Positions 2,934 to 20,085 of a stretch of DNA of 26,702 nucleotides are shown here, piece after piece (the stretch's first letter is position 1; the number at the start of each line of letters is the position of its first letter). The stretch is from a virus. Its lineage: Duplodnaviria > Heunggongvirae > Uroviricota > Caudoviricetes. The position numbers and the translations under genes were made by a program. The stretch lies in the IMG/VR virus record IMGVR_UViG_2660238061_000004, one strand, 5' to 3'. A model generated the notes under the pieces. The model searched no databases and was not told the DNA's origin. It was given only the letters and a program-made list of their open reading frames with translations.

Positions 2934-2969
2934 TGAACATTGATTCCCACCACCAAAAGGAGTTTTGAA

Positions 2970-3167
2970 ATGAGCACTAAAGCAGAATTGTTAGCGAAGA
3001 TGGATCGCATGGCAGATGAGTGGTCACGCACCACTGGCCTCAACAATGACTATGTTGAGGGCGAGCGTTACACCAAAATCAAAGACCAACTTGCAGCGCT
3101 CGGGGTGAACGCTCGCATTGATGCCGTAGAGGGTAATTCAGCTCAATTCAGGGTTTATGTAGATTGA
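2970..3167 (+). CDS. small hypothetical protein (moron inside the head module, opposite strand)
   Basis: ATG at 2970 preceded by AAAGGAG seven nt upstream; 65 aa (MSTKAELLAKMDRMADEW...); stop TGA 3165..3167; followed by a hairpin plus T-run. Confidence 0.55.
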   Translation: MSTKAELLAKMDRMADEWSRTTGLNNDYVEGERYTKIKDQLAALGVNARIDAVEGNSAQFRVYVD

Positions 3168-5289: not shown

Positions 5290-6495
5290 TTATTGTTTGC
5301 CCAGGGCGGCCCAGACACCGAGATCGCCAACGCTTGTGATGTATCCATCCAGCGAGTAGCGCACGGCATCCCACAGGTGGTTATGCTTATCCACGACAAC
5401 CGGCAGCACTTCGCCGGTCATGCGGTCGGTTTTGTAGGAGTAAAGGCGCGCCTCATCGACCATGTGCTTACAGCGCTCATGGATGATGATTTCTTCGAAC
5501 CCTTTCAGGTAGGTAATGCCGTCCTCAACGCTCCCCGGCCATTTGGTAGCGCCGTCGATGATGAAGCCCTGACGCGAAAGATAACTGATGGTCTCCGGCC
5601 GGCTGCAGTCGCCGTGAATGGGCCATTTTCTGGATTCCGGGATGGAGTCATAGAACTGCGCCATTTCGTCCAGCTCGACGCCGACGCCGTAGGCTTCGTA
5701 CTCGATGTACAATCGGGTGCCGATAATGAAGCAACGGACCAGAGTGGATGGGTCGTTGGCGAAACCGAAGTCAGCCCCATAAAACAGGCGATCGGCTTCT
5801 TTCCACAGGTCGTCAGAGAATGCCTCAACCCGGTACTTGCCGGAGAAGATAACGGCCTCACTGAGCGCCTTCGGCAGCCCCAGCCAGATATGCTCGTAAG
5901 CCTCGAAGTCGATACGCTTGCAGTATTCCATCTCGTGCCTGAGCACGTCAGGGAAGAATGCGTTATCGCAGTAGTTGACGCAGGTAATAATCGCTCCGCC
6001 ATCAGGGGGATCGGCGCGGTGCCGCTCCATCATGGCGTAGGTCGGGTCGGTAGCTTCGCGCGGGTTGAACGACACCCACACTTCGGATTTATTGGCGCGA
6101 ACGGTCGGACCGAGGATGTCCCAGCTATCCTGCGATACGGTTTGCGCTTCCTCTACCCAGCATATTTTGATGCCGTGCATCGACTTAATGCTCTGGATGT
6201 TGTTGCGCAGACCTTTGAAGGTAAACCGCGTGCCGTTGCTGCCCTCTATCTCGTTGTTCTTGACCTTGTAGAAGTGCGCCAGGCCAAGCGAGTGGATTTC
6301 AGCGTCCAGCAGTGCCAGTACCGAATCGTTGATAGAGTTCTGGAACTCACGAGCGCACAGGATGATCATTGGCTCGATAGCGCCCAACAATACCAGCGCG
6401 CGGGCAATCTCTACCGATTTGCCGCCACCACGACCGCCATACGTCCAGCGCCAGCGGACAGAGCCTATCGGTGCGTCGTACAGCGTCCCGAGCAC
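5290..6495 (-). CDS. terminase large subunit
   Basis: 401 aa with Walker A GGRGGGKS near the N-terminus and nuclease-like C-terminal half; GTG start without a clear SD, so the start is uncertain. Confidence 0.85.
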
Positions 6496-6530: not shown

Positions 6531-7238
6531 TTATTGTTGGGCTGTCTGCTTTCCCTCGCGCAGCTTATCCATGTGCGCTGCCCACGCTTCAGGCGGGCAG
6601 TTCGACGGCGTGACGATGCAGACCTTTCCGTAACTCAGGCCAGCCAGATCGACATTCACTTCCGTTTTGTTGCTCATGTCGATGCCGGTGAGCTGCGCGG
6701 CGTTTTTGATGTTCGGGGCTACCTGCCCAAACTTCTCAGCGTCCAGCGCGGCTTTCGCCGATTTGTAGGAGAGTTCAGCCAGGTCTTTCGCGTCGAATGA
6801 TACGAGCAGAGCGGCATCCTGACGCAGCTCTCTGATGCGCCTGCGCACATCCGGGCGTTTGAAAAGTATCGATGCCTGGGAATCAGCGCGTGAAGGCGAA
6901 TAGCCCGCGCATATCGCCGCCTCTTTCTGCGGCATGCCCCGCGCGATGTTCTGCGCAAACTGCTCATGCTGTGGTTTAAGGATGCCTGCGTTTTCCTGCG
7001 CAGTATCGCCCTCAACTGGCGTAGAGGCTTCAACCACTACTACATGCGGCATCTGGCTTTGCGCAGTTTTGCGCACATCCTTTTGCGCAGTTTTTTGCGC
7101 AGCAGGCTTTTTGATGTACCTGCGCGCAGATGTATAATTCAGTCCCTGCGCTTCGCACCATTCTTTCGGCGATATACCTGTTTTGGCATGCTCGGCGAGG
7201 AACCGTCTTTGGAGGCTTCCCCAGTCCGGTTTTGCCAT
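6531..7238 (-). CDS. terminase small subunit
   Basis: 235-aa ORF directly upstream of terminase large; N-terminal HTH-like segment ([23 protein letters not shown]); ATG at 7236..7238. Confidence 0.65.
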
Positions 7239-7374
7239 AAAACTCTCTGGAATATTCCAATAAACGAGGCGATAGTAACCATTGAAAATGACGAAGTATT
7301 AGCGGCAAAAATTATTTTGCTTCTATACAAGTGTCATGTTTCAACCCTAAGAACTTTGATGCAAAGGAACGACT

Positions 7375-7635
7375 ATGTCAGATGTAGAAAAAAGAATTGC
7401 CCATCTTGAGGATTTGGTTGAAGAGTTACAGTTACACAGCCACGCTTCTCGTGTTGCTATTGCTGTATTATCAACGGCTTTAAACGGAGTTGTGGGGAAA
7501 GAAACTCACCTCGGAGATGTTTATTTAGAAGGGGTTTCTAAGGCCGACCCCATCGAATTCGACATTCCCGCTAAAGATGGATACCTAGAAAAATTAAACG
7601 AGAGAGTCGCTGCTCTACTAGGCAGAGCACAATAA
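7375..7635 (+). CDS. small coiled-coil protein, AT-rich moron in the lambda bor position
   Basis: ATG 7375 with AAAGGAAC upstream; 86 aa (MSDVEKRIAHLEDLVEELQ...) with a hydrophobic stretch VAIAVLSTALNGVV; opposite strand to the flanking late genes; not Bor-like (no lipoprotein signal). Confidence 0.5.
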   Translation: MSDVEKRIAHLEDLVEELQLHSHASRVAIAVLSTALNGVVGKETHLGDVYLEGVSKADPIEFDIPAKDGYLEKLNERVAALLGRAQ

Positions 7636-7671
7636 GCATTTTTCAAAATCATTTTTCTTAAGCCTTTTACG

Positions 7672-7689
7672 CATCCCCTCCGGGGGATG
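7672..7689 (+). other. GC-rich hairpin after the 7375 gene, no T-run
   Basis: catcccc-tccg-ggggatg perfect 7-bp stem. Confidence 0.25.
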
Positions 7690-7726
7690 TAGCCATAAAG
7701 ATGAGTTTGTCCATAGCGTTGACACT

Positions 7727-7750
7727 AAAAAACCGCCCGTAGGCGGTTTG
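7727..7750 (-). terminator. rho-independent terminator for minus-strand (late) transcripts
   Basis: aaccgcc-cgta-ggcggtt perfect stem preceded by an A-run on plus, which is a T-run on the minus strand. Confidence 0.45.
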
Positions 7751-8134
7751 TAGGTGAAAGGAAGGCCAAGCTAATGCGAATTACTACAAGGTTCAGTTAT
7801 CCCTAATGACGCGACGGACATTTCGGGGCCAAACCAAGCAGCGTCACCTGAGCCCCTTGGCTTTTCATGAATTGACCCAACAGCGTGACCTGAAAGGCGG
7901 GAGACTCCAACGTCCCAGACGCGGGTGGTAAAAATCTCAAGATGGTCATCCATCTCGGAATTCTCCCTTCGCACTATCCTCTCGATTTCTGTTACCCCTG
8001 GCTCAGGAACCCTGACGTCACGATCAACGGTTGCTTAAGGGGAAGTCCAAAAACTGGGTCAAAAAGACCTCCTTGAACTTTCCGTGGGTTAACATTTTTT
8101 ATGATAGCGAAACGGGTAACTTTCGCAAATATTG

Positions 8135-8398
8135 TTATTTAAAATGAGATGTGCGTGAAAGTTCAACCTTCCATATATCAGCCTTATCCCGATTGCATTG
8201 CCCCAGCGCCGATAGCAGACTGACATTCAGATCCAGACTGTCCCCGTAGGTCAGCGGCTCGGGAATGGCAGGCTGTGGTGTTTCAGCTGTCAGGTTCGCC
8301 GGCAGGGGCACCACCGGCGCCTGCACGTAAACTGTCCGCGTATTCCCGCAGCCGGTTAGCAGCTGCAGCAGGCACAGGCCGACGAGCGCAATCATCAT
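8135..8398 (-). CDS. Rz1-like outer-membrane spanin lipoprotein
   Basis: Out-of-frame ORF starting inside Rz; lipobox LLTGC after a hydrophobic leader; proline-rich mature part; start taken at the internal MM (track ORF is 8135..8464). Confidence 0.55.
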   Translation of the reverse strand: MMIALVGLCLLQLLTGCGNTRTVYVQAPVVPLPANLTAETPQPAIPEPLTYGDSLDLNVSLLSALGQCNRDKADIWKVELSRTSHFK

Positions 8399-8675
8399 CC
8401 GCAACAGCCACTTTGATATCTGCCTGGGCTCTCTGTGACTCCAGTGCGATCTTGTTCTTTGCATTCTGGTTCGCCTCTGAAATGGCGTTGATGATACTCA
8501 CGGCCCGAATCACGTTCGCGGTGACAGCATTCGCGGTCTCAGCCTGCTGTTCTGCGCTATCGGCCCGCTCCTTTTCGCTACTGGCTTTGTCGCTGTAATA
8601 CCATGCCGACCAGCACGCCCCGCCGAACAGGCAAAGGAGGAATATGGCAATCGCAATGATGTGACGAGCTTTCAT
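8283..8675 (-). CDS. Rz-like inner-membrane spanin
   Basis: 130 aa with an N-terminal transmembrane segment and a coiled-coil/charged periplasmic part; start overlaps the endolysin stop. Confidence 0.65.
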   Translation of the reverse strand: MKARHIIAIAIFLLCLFGGACWSAWYYSDKASSEKERADSAEQQAETANAVTANVIRAVSIINAISEANQNAKNKIALESQRAQADIKVAVADDDCARRPVPAAAANRLREYADSLRAGAGGAPAGEPDS

Positions 8676-9208
8676 TTATCGAGCCCCCAGCATGCCAACG
8701 CGCTTTCTTGGTCGCGGCGTTCCACCTGACCGAAGCATCCGTTCTTCTGCCCCTTGGTTAGCCGGCAATCCCGGCCGCCATCTTTTATCCACCAGCGGAT
8801 CGCTTCGCATGCCCCTTTACGGTCACCGGCATTGATGCGCTTATAGAACGTCGAGGGGAAGCACTTACCGGGCCCGATGTTATACGGGCAGAAAGAAGCT
8901 ATTCCGGCCTTTTGCGGTTCGGTCAGCGGCACCCTGATATTGCGTTCAACCCAGGCCAGCGCTTTATTTCGCTCAACGGCATTCACCTGGTCACATTTGG
9001 CCTGCGTCAGCTTCATGCCCTGGCGAACTGGTTTACCATCTACCAGCGTGGCGCCGCGGCAAATAGTCCAGACGCCGCCACCGTCCTGATAAGCAATCAG
9101 GCTGTTGCCTTCCTTCTCATTCAGGAACTGATCGAGAATAACGGGCGCTGACGCACCGGCGAGGATAAGACCTAATACCGCAGCGCTAAGCTTTGATCTG
9201 TCAGCCAC
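8672..9208 (-). CDS. SAR endolysin (phage 21 R-like lysozyme)
   Basis: Lysozyme E...D...T catalytic region (EGNSLIAYQDGGGVWT) after a weakly hydrophobic signal-anchor-release segment (LSAAVLGLILAGASAPVIL); GTG start at 9206..9208 overlapping the holin stop (TAGTG) with GGGGGG upstream. Confidence 0.85.
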   Translation of the reverse strand: MADRSKLSAAVLGLILAGASAPVILDQFLNEKEGNSLIAYQDGGGVWTICRGATLVDGKPVRQGMKLTQAKCDQVNAVERNKALAWVERNIRVPLTEPQKAGIASFCPYNIGPGKCFPSTFYKRINAGDRKGACEAIRWWIKDGGRDCRLTKGQKNGCFGQVERRDQESALACWGLDK

Positions 9209-9423
9209 TATTCCCCCCTGGCGGCTTTGCGCCGGTCCTCTTTGATTTTGAAATACAGGTTTGTCAGATACGTCAGCAGCCCGAACACCAGGCTGCCAAG
9301 CACACCAATGGCTGCCCACTGCGATGGTGACACCTGGTCAAGCAACTGCAGGCTCCAGTAACCAGCGTTAGTCGCTGATGCACCATAGGCGATGCCAGTG
9401 GTTAGTTTTTCCATGCGTAACAT
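9208..9423 (-). CDS. class II holin, S21-type pinholin with dual-start motif
   Basis: 71 aa [23 protein letters not shown]...; two TMDs, charged C-terminus, Met1 and Met4 separated by a basic residue as in phage 21 S. Confidence 0.85.
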
Positions 9424-9931: not shown

Positions 9932-10762
9932 TTATCGAGTTATTGCTCGCAGTTGCGATTCGGCCCACGCTTCTTCCATGTCGAATTTGGTGATCAGCCG
10001 GTCGTAAAACGGCTTCACTGACTTTTTCCAGGTGTCCAGAGTAATGGCGTCGGTAATAAGGCAAACAGCCGCATATGCCTCAGTCGAGGGGATCCGCTCA
10101 TACCCGCGCCCGCCGCAGCGCTTGCAGTCGGCCATCACCGGCGCGCCCTGCTTTTCTGTCAGCGTCTTGCTGACAGCTTTTCCGCGCCCCTGGCAGTCAT
10201 TACATGCGCAGCTGACGACCTTCTTCCCTTTGCAGGCCGAGCACAGCACCCGGGCCACCTCTTTCACCTCACGCCGATTCTGATGCTGCGAAGGGATAAC
10301 CTTCAGCCCCCATTTTTTTGATTTTTGAATGATGTCTTTTGCGCAGCCAGAGATGCTGGTTTTCATACTAAAAACGTCAGCCTCAATGAACCCCTGCCCT
10401 GCGCAACATTCGCACCTCTTGACGCTGGCGGCGCTGCGGGAATAGTCCTCAAAAGCGAAGGTAGCAAGCTGGCGCATCACCAGCGGTTTAACCCCAGCGT
10501 CCAGTTTGCGCAGGGCAGCCACGCTATCGCATTTTGTCAGCGCATACTGGGCCAGCAGCTCGATCGCTCTCTCCCGATCGTTGTTGCTGATGCCCATCTT
10601 TCCGAGAAAGGCACTGTAGCCCATGGCGGCGCGTTCCTGGGTCATGCCCATGGCTGCCATGATGTCCGTTCCGGTCAGCGAGTCGGAGGCCGTAGCGCGC
10701 GGAGAGTCGCTAATCAGCGTCGATTTGGCGAAGTGGTATTTCACGGTGTTTTCGAGGTTCAT
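9932..10762 (-). CDS. late-gene antiterminator Q candidate with CxxCxGxG zinc-finger repeats
   Basis: 276-aa ORF between rusA and the holin, the position Q occupies in DLP12/lambda; four CxxCxGx(G) motifs. Assignment is mainly positional. Confidence 0.55.
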   Translation of the reverse strand: MNLENTVKYHFAKSTLISDSPRATASDSLTGTDIMAAMGMTQERAAMGYSAFLGKMGISNNDRERAIELLAQYALTKCDSVAALRKLDAGVKPLVMRQLATFAFEDYSRSAASVKRCECCAGQGFIEADVFSMKTSISGCAKDIIQKSKKWGLKVIPSQHQNRREVKEVARVLCSACKGKKVVSCACNDCQGRGKAVSKTLTEKQGAPVMADCKRCGGRGYERIPSTEAYAAVCLITDAITLDTWKKSVKPFYDRLITKFDMEEAWAESQLRAITR

Positions 10763-18721: not shown

Positions 18722-19111
18722 ATGAGAAAAGAAGAACCCAACCTCGTTCTGGTGGAGCGCCTTACTGAGATCACTGATCGCGGCGTTACCAAAGCAGACA
18801 TGGCAAGAATAGCTGGAGTCACCCCTCAGGCCGTAAACGGCTGGTTCAAAAAAGGCGTGATTAGTAAGAAATCGGCACTGGCCATAGCCGACGCTGTTGG
18901 TATTTCTGTCGCCTGGCTACTCGGTGAAGACGTTGGGGAGAAAGACGGTCTCAAACCGGACGAACAGCGTTTGCTCGAGCTCTACCGCCAGTTACCGGAA
19001 GAAGAGCAGCAGAACATGCTCCGCATTTTTGCGCTTCGCCTGAAAGAGTTAGATGAGCTGTACGAGAAGTACATGAAGGGTCGGATTCGATCGCAAGGTG
19101 AGCAAACCTAA
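18722..19111 (+). CDS. CI-like phage repressor (XRE HTH) without a peptidase domain
   Basis: 129 aa from ATG 18722; HTH MARIAGVTPQAVNGWFKKG; short C-terminal helical region; track ORF 18452..19111 has a spurious N-terminal extension overlapping cro. Confidence 0.65.
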   Translation: MRKEEPNLVLVERLTEITDRGVTKADMARIAGVTPQAVNGWFKKGVISKKSALAIADAVGISVAWLLGEDVGEKDGLKPDEQRLLELYRQLPEEEQQNMLRIFALRLKELDELYEKYMKGRIRSQGEQT

Positions 19112-19175
19112 ACCAGTAGTATCTAATTCCATGTAATAAAAATATTTCAAGATTTAATATCTTCTGGAGGATTCG

Positions 19176-19457
19176 GTGTCTAAAGAAACAACCGTCGAAC
19201 TTATGCATCTTAATGATGTAATCGAAGCGAAAAATTTCATCGAGACCAATGCTGACGGTGTCGTAACAATCGGCACACAAAATGCCGGTTACGAAGTTTA
19301 CAATTTTGTGTTCCTGAATAGCAGCCCGATCATCGGTACGGATAATGCGGATATAGTCGTCAAGGGCATGCAGCGAACCAAAGTTGTGTCTGTGACTTTA
19401 AGCAAACAAAAGGCTTATGATTTTTATCAATCCTTAAAAAGTATGTTTGAGGAATAA
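19176..19457 (+). CDS. orphan 93-aa protein, first gene of the rex-position pair
   Basis: GTG start with GGAGGA SD; AT-rich; immediately downstream of the repressor on the same strand. Confidence 0.5.
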   Translation: MSKETTVELMHLNDVIEAKNFIETNADGVVTIGTQNAGYEVYNFVFLNSSPIIGTDNADIVVKGMQRTKVVSVTLSKQKAYDFYQSLKSMFEE

Positions 19458-19463
19458 TAATTG

Positions 19464-19985
19464 ATGGATGCGGCTCAATCATCTCTTGGTGAAGGGAAGT
19501 TATTGATTGCATATTCAGACCATAGCGGAGCTACAGTAGGCTTAGAGTTTTCATCAGTAGCTTCGAGCCAAGCAACCTTCCTTATGGGTGCTTGTAGTTT
19601 TGCCGCTTCGGATAAACAAAAACGGATTGTCACATCAGTTGCTATGGATGATACTGAAATCATTCATACGTCAACTGAAGATGGAGGTGACGACATGGAA
19701 AAGAGATTGGCTATTCTTGAGGTTGAAGTTGCCCACATCAAGAAAGATGTTGCCGAGATAAAAAACACAGTTTCAAAAGTTGATACGACAGTGAATTCAC
19801 TGGACAAAAATATGGCTGTAGTTTTGGAGAGGCTGTCTAGTATCAAAGAGTCTGTAGACAAAAAGCCCTCATCAGACACAGTGGACAAGAAAATCTCTGA
19901 TGCTAAATTGGCGATTCTCTTAGGTGTCCCTGCGATTATCGCCATTGGTACAGGGCTGTACAAAGCTTTTATGCACTTCTTTTAG
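19464..19985 (+). CDS. orphan 173-aa protein with coiled-coil and C-terminal membrane anchor, second gene of the pair
   Basis: ATG 19464 with GAGGAA SD; heptad-like middle (MEKRLAILEVEVAHIKKDVAEIKNTV...); hydrophobic C-terminus LAILLGVPAIIAIGTGLYKAF. Confidence 0.55.
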   Translation: MDAAQSSLGEGKLLIAYSDHSGATVGLEFSSVASSQATFLMGACSFAASDKQKRIVTSVAMDDTEIIHTSTEDGGDDMEKRLAILEVEVAHIKKDVAEIKNTVSKVDTTVNSLDKNMAVVLERLSSIKESVDKKPSSDTVDKKISDAKLAILLGVPAIIAIGTGLYKAFMHFF

Positions 19986-20058
19986 TCAGATTTGGTCAAT
20001 ACGCCTGAGTTATAAGGCTCTCAGCTACTAACTCTGTCGCCTTCCCCGAACCTTCTCA

Positions 20059-20085
20059 TCCCGACCACGCGTCGGGATTTTTTTT
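20059..20085 (+). terminator. rho-independent terminator ending the repressor operon
   Basis: tcccgac-cacgc-gtcggga perfect stem followed by eight T. Confidence 0.65.

Follow-up and report, generated by a model that had tools for sequence, protein, structure and literature searches.

The window analysed here is the whole 26,702-nt stretch of the IMG/VR virus record IMGVR_UViG_2660238061_000004 (Caudoviricetes). The gene under study occupies positions 7375..7635 on the plus strand, in the interval from the spanin genes to terS. It is antisense to the late operon, and the neighbouring phage genes all lie on the minus strand. The genes around it, together with its ribosome-binding site, are as follows:

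5290-6495, minus strand: TerL (Terminase_3; Pfam)
6531-7238, minus strand: TerS (Terminase_2; Pfam)
7364..7369, plus strand: Shine-Dalgarno sequence AAGGAA of the pid homolog, 5 nt upstream of the ATG (read from the sequence)
7375..7635, plus strand: coding sequence of the pid homolog (open reading frame list; homology to Pid of phage P22)
8135-8464, minus strand: Rz1/LysC (Pfam)
8283-8675, minus strand: Rz or Rz-like protein (Pfam)
8672-9208, minus strand: lysozyme (Pfam)
9208-9423, minus strand: holin (Pfam)
9932-10762, minus strand: antiterminator Q (Pfam)

The open reading frame at 7375..7635 is a genuine gene, and its product in the open reading frame list, MSDVEKRIAHLEDLVEELQLHSHASRVAIAVLSTALNGVVGKETHLGDVYLEGVSKADPIEFDIPAKDGYLEKLNERVAALLGRAQ, is a protein of 86 aa and 9.4 kDa with a pI of 5.0 and no cysteine. 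Its GC content is 0.43, compared with 0.56-0.58 in the flanking genes. The first-pass annotation had described an antisense, AT-rich gene flanked by the lysis cassette and the terminase genes, and the open reading frame list, the Pfam assignments and the GC values agree with this description; its placement of the gene as a moron in the bor position likewise stands, as the gene is divergently transcribed between the spanin and terminase genes.

The gene is identified by its homology to Pid of the Salmonella phages P22 and BTP1. Pairwise BLASTP aligned P22 Pid with the window protein over 86 residues with 53/86 identities (62%), 71/86 positives (83%) and no gaps (E = 8e-41). Upon tblastn searching of 50,697 GenBank phage records, 30 records were matched, all from Salmonella P22-like phages, each at 61.6-62.8% identity and with at least 91% of the query covered, and the published pid site was hit at E = 7e-30. 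In P22 the match falls at NC_002371.2 40449-40706 (minus strand), which are the published coordinates of the pid ORF, unannotated in that record, and its counterpart in BTP1 and phage P6 bears the annotation 'pid: Pid regulatory protein'. The PHROG family 16546, whose function is unannotated, was matched over positions 1-86 of 86 (E = 5e-36). The link to P22 emerged at the protein level only, as megablast matched the locus to no GenBank phage; Pfam and NCBIfam scans of the 86-aa protein returned nothing at or above threshold, the sole NCBIfam match being negligible, the PADLOC models gave no family at E <= 0.1, and a sequence-profile search of the PDB found GCN4 and other coiled-coil noise only (best E = 0.32). 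Membership of the window gene in the Pid family is close to certain.

Pid of P22, an 86-aa protein of 9.23 kDa, is the product of a formerly unannotated moron between orf25 and orf80, a moron being an accessory gene that brings its own expression signals, and it causes derepression of dgoRKAT in the host (Cenens et al., 2013, PMC3573128). The P22 gene runs opposite in direction to the late genes and has its own Rho-independent terminator, its protein was detected by mass spectrometry, and it is expressed in phage carrier (pseudolysogenic) cells (PMC3573128). Since a start-codon frameshift in P22 pid leads to no dgoRKAT induction, it is the protein rather than an RNA that acts on the operon (PMC3573128). 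Deletion of dgoR makes dgo constitutive, and extra DgoR abolishes the dgo induction caused by P22 infection, the one observation in the P22 studies that bears on direct binding of Pid to DgoR (PMC3573128). With TPM > 100, pid belongs to the most strongly transcribed prophage genes of BTP1 lysogens (PMC7067206). Few phage proteins are known to activate a particular metabolic operon of the host, and Pid is one of these; it is also the molecular marker of the P22 carrier (pseudolysogenic) state.

Like the P22 and BTP1 proteins, the window protein is 86 aa long and is encoded by an antisense late-region moron between spanin and terminase genes, and the loci further share a conserved Shine-Dalgarno sequence with the proximal leader. 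The promoter of P22 pid is distant and its leader long, and a far-upstream promoter with a long leader is predicted in the window. Unlike P22, the host of the window phage is E. coli and terS directly adjoins the gene, whereas in P22 pid is separated from gene 3 by orf80 and orf59c and from Rz by rha and orf25.

The amino acid sequence and the structure model point to a soluble product. The maximal Kyte-Doolittle 19-residue mean of the 86-aa protein is 1.15, which is not that of a transmembrane protein, and neither a signal peptide, an N-terminal hydrophobic signal nor a transmembrane segment was found in it. Residues 27-41 are mildly hydrophobic only, and this same maximum rules them out as a transmembrane segment. 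An AlphaFold2 model from a 19-sequence alignment (pLDDT 82.8, pTM 0.68), which superseded a poor earlier model from 4 sequences (pLDDT 57), is all-helical, with a long helix at residues 3-38 and short helices at residues 46-56 and 70-81 packed onto the long one. As modelled, the Pid homolog is a small, acidic, soluble, all-helical cytoplasmic protein. Its coiled-coil character, noted in the first reading of the locus, is retained in that the protein opens with a long heptad-type helix; the membrane activity proposed at the same time finds no counterpart in a protein without transmembrane segment, signal peptide or cysteine. An AroQ-type chorismate mutase fold was also named among the closest known systems of the Pid homolog.

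Lambda Bor is an outer-membrane lipoprotein encoded by a moron between Rz and cos/nu1. The window gene resembles bor in slot, in antisense orientation and in being an AT-rich accessory gene, but the two have no sequence similarity, and the window protein lacks a signal peptide, a lipobox and a cysteine, Pid being cytoplasmic. A Bor/Iss lipoprotein was rejected as an identity, as there is no cysteine, no signal and no Pfam match reaching the cut-off.

Pid has been published as an 'ORFan'. A word-indexed search of 5.8 billion proteins gave 5 clusters at 90% identity, and a profile search of 1.84 billion representatives (50% identity) gave 21 proteins of 48-112 aa, 18 of which are full-length members of about 80-104 aa, the remaining 3 being short or frameshifted fragments. 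The family reaches Pantoea and unidentified hosts at 29-59% identity. In its alignment L11, A24 and L74 are invariant and M1, A28, Y70, L81 and L82 nearly so, and the conserved blocks are a core HAxxVAIxxLSxxxN and a C-terminal GYxEKLxxxVxxLL. Position 84, which is R in the window protein and T in P22 Pid, is variable across the family; a T84M change attenuates P22 Pid (PMC8835761). The pattern [DE]-x-E-x-[RK]-[IV]-x-x-L-E is, by the alignment, the conserved start of the family's first helix and at the same time a common coiled-coil-type sequence. A scan of all 19 family members yielded scattered coiled-coil noise, with SlyX matched by 2/19, and a scan of genome contigs with Pid peptide patterns gave no true relative.

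Wherever the flanks sufficed and were mapped, the gene occupies, in antisense orientation, the slot that separates the lysis cassette from the small terminase gene, in combination with at least three TerS/TerL types. The slot was mapped at these loci:

L003-L006: Pantoea-type loci, pid between the lysis cassette and terS
L007-L011: metagenome loci, same slot
L015: IMG/VR contig, same slot (by open reading frame map)

In L015 the homolog is at 6001-6261, 40 bp from the Rz stop codon, and in L002, a Pantoea agglomerans genome, pid sits in a decayed prophage. The small genes neighbouring pid vary between loci and are mutually unrelated, and pid is therefore a single-gene moron rather than part of an operon; in the window it is a self-contained, AT-rich one in the positional equivalent of lambda bor. 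On these sequence comparisons, Pid, although published as an ORFan, belongs to a small Enterobacterales prophage family with a conserved gene position. Full-length relatives in the same slot in E. coli, Pantoea and other hosts thus remove the ORFan status, and the alignment with its conserved positions, together with the structure model, is useful for mutant design.

A separate observation concerns the related phage type of L007-L009, which has the 69%-identical Pid and carries an extra 110-aa antisense gene, unrelated to Pid, between portal and TerL:

L007, 332..664: 110-aa antisense gene
L008, 3347..3679: 110-aa antisense gene
L009, 3348..3608: the same gene, with a frameshift that leaves 86 aa

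Within E. coli, the 901-bp segment window:7240-8140 was found at 100% identity in 16 complete chromosomes and at 99.9% in a 17th (17 of 5,426 genomes). The identical gene is labelled 'hypothetical protein' by RefSeq in these prophages, so that the gain for annotation is from 'hypothetical protein' to Pid-family protein, with no new mechanism.

The sequences flanking the gene were compared with those of P22, and the following features were located:

7111..7138, plus strand: predicted sigma-70 promoter TTGATG-16-TATAAT (consensus scan, 10/12 matches), within the 5' part of the terS coding sequence, which is on the opposite strand
7283..7374, plus strand: proximal 5' leader homologous to the P22 pid 5'UTR (alignment with P22)
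7672..7689, plus strand: GC-rich hairpin with a 7-bp stem and a 4-nt loop, no U tract (sequence, fold)
7727..7749, both strands: hairpin AAAAAACCGCCCGTAGGCGGTTT (terminator scan; fold of 7630-7765, z = -3.7)

Identity to P22 is 68% in the coding sequence, 60% in the 100 nt before the ATG and 41% in the next 100 nt upstream. The leader homology extends over about 90 nt, Shine-Dalgarno sequence included, and covers the part of the P22 leader from -64 to -12, which is required for a shorter pid mRNA species (Wolput et al., 2022, PMC8835761). The Shine-Dalgarno sequence at the equivalent place in P22 is AAGGAG (PMC3573128), and its AAGGA core is unchanged in 5/5 aligned pid loci. Further upstream the alignment showed no homology to the P22 promoter region. 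The P22 promoter is weak, with an eroded -10 box AATCCT, and promoter-up mutations make P22 lysogens derepress dgo constitutively (PMC8835761); the predicted window promoter, in contrast, is near-consensus. It is the best promoter-like site in a consensus scan of 7100-7375 (plus strand), 237-264 nt upstream of the ATG, and, if it is used, transcription is predicted to start near 7145, with a leader of about 230 nt that would cover the start of terS in antisense. A similar promoter-like site, TTGATG-16-TGTAAT, is present in L015.

Downstream, the terminator is needed for stability of the P22 pid mRNA (PMC8835761), and the P22-type terminator right after the stop codon (hairpin plus U tract), which is present in P22, L007, L015 and L003, is absent in the window. 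The hairpin at 7727..7749 is a strong intrinsic terminator on the minus strand, but on the plus strand it is followed by TTTGT only and would be weak there at best; it is likely the 3' end of the pid transcript as well as the end of a convergent RNA gene described below. As neither the promoter nor the terminator of P22 is kept in the window, regulation of pid may differ between the two phages.

These flanks bear on the question of whether the locus acts mainly as an RNA, in which case the ORF would be secondary, and the long pid leader, complementary to the start of terS, would lower late-gene or terminase expression. Starting from the 7111..7138 promoter, the leader over 7111..7238 would be complementary to the first approximately 94 nt of terS and its ribosome-binding site, so that antisense interference would be possible, and the P22 pid 5'UTR is likewise unusually long at 174 nt and is processed, being the source of a second mRNA species (PMC8835761). 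However, the start-codon frameshift already mentioned abolishes the phenotype in P22 (PMC3573128), the P22 leader does not overlap a late gene, and it is the protein that is conserved family-wide and not the flanks. The fold stability of the window leader is also ordinary (z = -0.63), and a conserved leader hairpin was rejected as a feature, the consensus hairpin being weak at -5.3 kcal/mol with 3 compensatory pairs among 5 sequences. A role mainly at the RNA level is accordingly highly improbable, and the Pid protein is taken as the effector in what follows.

On these findings, the window gene counts as an ortholog-type Pid of an E. coli prophage. By analogy with P22 Pid, its product would most likely relieve the autorepression that DgoR exerts on the D-galactonate operon of the host (dgoRKAT in Salmonella, dgoRKADT in E. 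coli). Derepression would be expected at a high enough dose, as in carrier-state cells with many unintegrated copies of the phage genome, or alternatively from the prophage, given a promoter stronger than the eroded one of P22. This explanation joins what was observed at the locus, namely the homology, the gene position, the ribosome-binding site with its leader, the family conservation and the lack of membrane features, to a dgo/DgoR target and a dose dependence that would carry over from the P22 literature, and as a whole we consider it likely. For the same dgo target in E. coli, taken by itself, the analogy to P22 makes a plausible case, somewhat better than even, while direct binding of Pid to DgoR would be an inference even for P22. 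The gene suggests that E. coli could also serve for work on the Pid/dgo interaction or on variants of this interaction.

An identity of 62% to P22 Pid does not guarantee the same host target. The window protein could instead be a Pid-family protein with a diverged target, that is, an antagonist of another E. coli regulator or protein, or a factor in the control of the phage carrier state, with dgo as a Salmonella-specific side effect. Besides the modest identity to P22 Pid, the spread of the family to Pantoea and other hosts at 29-59% identity and the regulatory flanks unlike those of P22 are consistent with such divergence, as is the fact that the discussion of the P22 study left the purpose of the Pid/dgo interaction unsettled (PMC3573128). 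Against it, the most conserved blocks of the family are common to the window protein and P22 Pid. The dgo operon of E. coli is also controlled by DgoR and is closely related to that of Salmonella. We regard a diverged target as unlikely and retain the derepression of dgo as the preferred explanation.

A wider formulation takes Pid as the founder of a small helical protein family, always between the spanin genes and terS, whose members are possibly tuned to different repressors, and combines this with readings of the promoter as constitutive, of the leader as a brake and of the adjoining element as an RNA gene. If it were true, the near-consensus promoter in terS would make Pid a constitutive lysogenic-conversion factor rewiring sugar-acid metabolism, expression of the packaging genes would be further slowed by the long leader, which runs antisense to the start of terS, and the lysis and terminase genes would be separated by two accessory genes independent of each other, one for a protein and one for an RNA. 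All of these parts together are quite unlikely to hold jointly.

The first-pass annotation had further connected the 86-aa protein with a second protein of the window, encoded at 19464, through a shared N-terminal motif, and had considered the two as paralogous or functionally linked morons of a membrane-active coiled-coil type. The second locus is made up as follows:

18722-19111: cI-like helix-turn-helix repressor, upstream of the two-gene cassette (Pfam)
19176-19457, plus strand: 93-aa open reading frame preceding the 19464 gene, GC 0.40
19464..19985, plus strand: gene of the 19464 protein, 173 aa, with the ATG at 19464 as the most likely start, GC 0.42
near 20050-20075: terminator-like hairpin after the 19464 gene

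The 19464 protein was correctly described as a membrane protein in the rex position, its product being a membrane-anchored coiled coil downstream of a cI-like repressor. In proteins of its family (phrog_12602 / phrog_3556), an N-terminal part that varies and a Gly-rich linker are followed by a coiled coil, whose start reads ME-x-R-[VI]-A-x-LE-x-DV-x-HIK in the alignment, then by a KKPSxD motif and, at the C-terminus, by a transmembrane segment. The statement that both proteins continue from the motif into hydrophobic segments applies to this protein, whose transmembrane segment (residues about 147-170, Kyte-Doolittle 1.96) follows, but roughly 60 residues past the motif; in the 86-aa protein the corresponding stretch is the mild one at residues 27-41.

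The shared motif itself is real as a string, DVEKRIAHLE and DMEKRLAILE being 7/10 identical, and BLASTP aligned just these 10 residues (E = 0.033 for the single pair). The Smith-Waterman score of 47 was reached by 0.6-1.2% of plain shuffles but by 4-18% of heptad-preserving shuffles (p 0.04-0.18), and these p-values take one pair alone, the pair having been chosen post hoc from many possible pairs of window proteins. The motif is therefore a generic coiled-coil start and no better than chance for coiled-coil sequences. In an hhalign comparison of both family profiles the motifs came out in register with a pairwise E of 0.0043, at a probability of 8%. However, the 19464 coiled coil also matches more than 15 unrelated coiled-coil families, including SlyX, FlaC, IcmG/DotF and laminin, at E from 1e-5 to 0.05, that is, at similar or better values, and because of this promiscuity a pairwise E of 0.004 lies within background noise.

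The SlyX (PF04102) and XhlA-type coiled coils share the N-terminal heptad start LE-x-R-[IL]-x-x-LE with both window proteins, and the start of the SlyX model is weakly matched by both, the 86-aa protein scoring 16.9 bits (E = 0.01) and the 19464 protein 26.3 bits (E = 1e-5) at a threshold of 30 bits; the XhlA match (E = 0.7) is sub-threshold as well. Homology to SlyX or XhlA was rejected, as the first helix alone matches, by composition and periodicity, with all scores below the Pfam cut-offs. An XhlA-type hemolysin reading of the 19464 protein was likewise discarded as a weak resemblance only (Pfam E = 0.7; phrog_937 E = 1e-5).

The families also remain apart in database searches. None of the proteins returned by the Pid profile search of the 1.84 billion representatives has the 19464-type architecture, and the search with the 19464 protein gave 75 matches of 96-183 aa, none with the 86-aa length of Pid-family members, the matches of each search thus having the lengths of their own family. 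The Pid homolog has no KKPS motif and no anchor, and it ends where the anchor of the other family begins. The 7375 locus was found in 17 complete E. coli genomes and the 19170-19990 locus in 13, and both occur together in only 3 of the 27 carriers (AP027634, LS483297 and CM184333), which speaks against a functional linkage; at L001 the pid locus is found with a different immunity region, and in P22 and BTP1 pid stands alongside different immunity-region cargo, the gene after cI in BTP1 being bstA. Although the 10-residue motif with its 7 identities, its register in hhalign, the weak SlyX matches and the AT-rich composition of both genes (GC 0.43 and 0.42) could be taken in favour of a common origin, the low hhalign probability, the behaviour under heptad-preserving shuffling, the lack of cross-retrieval and of a transmembrane segment in the Pid homolog, and the rare co-occurrence of the loci disfavour it, and paralogs or a linked pair are scarcely credible. 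The proposed link of the Pid homolog to the rex-position membrane protein can be dropped.

With regard to the 19464 protein in its own right, the module of coiled coil, KKPSxD and anchor is common to more than 70 Enterobacterales protein clusters, behind very different N-terminal parts, and the protein could be a superinfection-exclusion or abortive-infection protein.

In the 500 bp between pid and Rz1, which had seemed empty, and convergent with pid, lies a conserved non-coding element, for which these features were mapped:

8128..8101, minus strand: promoter-like site TTGCGA-16-TATCAT (consensus scan, sigma-70-like)
8096..7727, minus strand: conserved non-coding element of about 370 nt
7749..7730, minus strand: strong intrinsic terminator (terminator scan)

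No conserved ORF, tRNA or tmRNA was found in the element, Rfam 15 gave no match even at E <= 10 save terminator-like fragments, the GenBank phages gave no match, and a full-text literature search with the core sequence returned nothing. Scans for the exact core located the element at 22 IMG/VR loci and in 3 species-representative genomes, which are a Citrobacter, a Pseudescherichia and a metagenome-assembled 'Desulfobacterales' that may be mis-binned; E. coli strain 53 also carries it. Its first approximately 107 nt are nearly invariant, and the RNAalifold consensus of 14 distinct copies (alignment A8) has 85 pairs with 97% of cells paired. Compensatory pairs numbered 13, compared with 5.5 +/- 1.4 in shuffled alignments (0/500 reach 13) and 2-8 in slid controls. 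At nearly every locus with identifiable flanks, the element starts about 20-130 nt past the spanin genes on the late-operon strand, and further away in a few, such as L030; this slot holds across several spanin and endolysin types and varied downstream genes, and pid accompanies the element in window-type phages only. The element looks like a candidate new structured RNA, an 'RNA moron', and the pid and RNA genes probably share the terminator hairpin at 7727..7749.

A divergent copy of the element was also detected in L015 at 10325..10663 (minus strand; nhmmer E = 5e-20), where it is not after the lysis genes and lies well upstream of a Q-like ORF (7942..8622). In the head-gene block of the window, a second short antisense ORF is located at about 2969..3166 (plus strand), between the head-morphogenesis and DUF2213 genes; it is labelled 'hypothetical protein' by RefSeq in an identical prophage (L001 15730-15927) and may be another moron.
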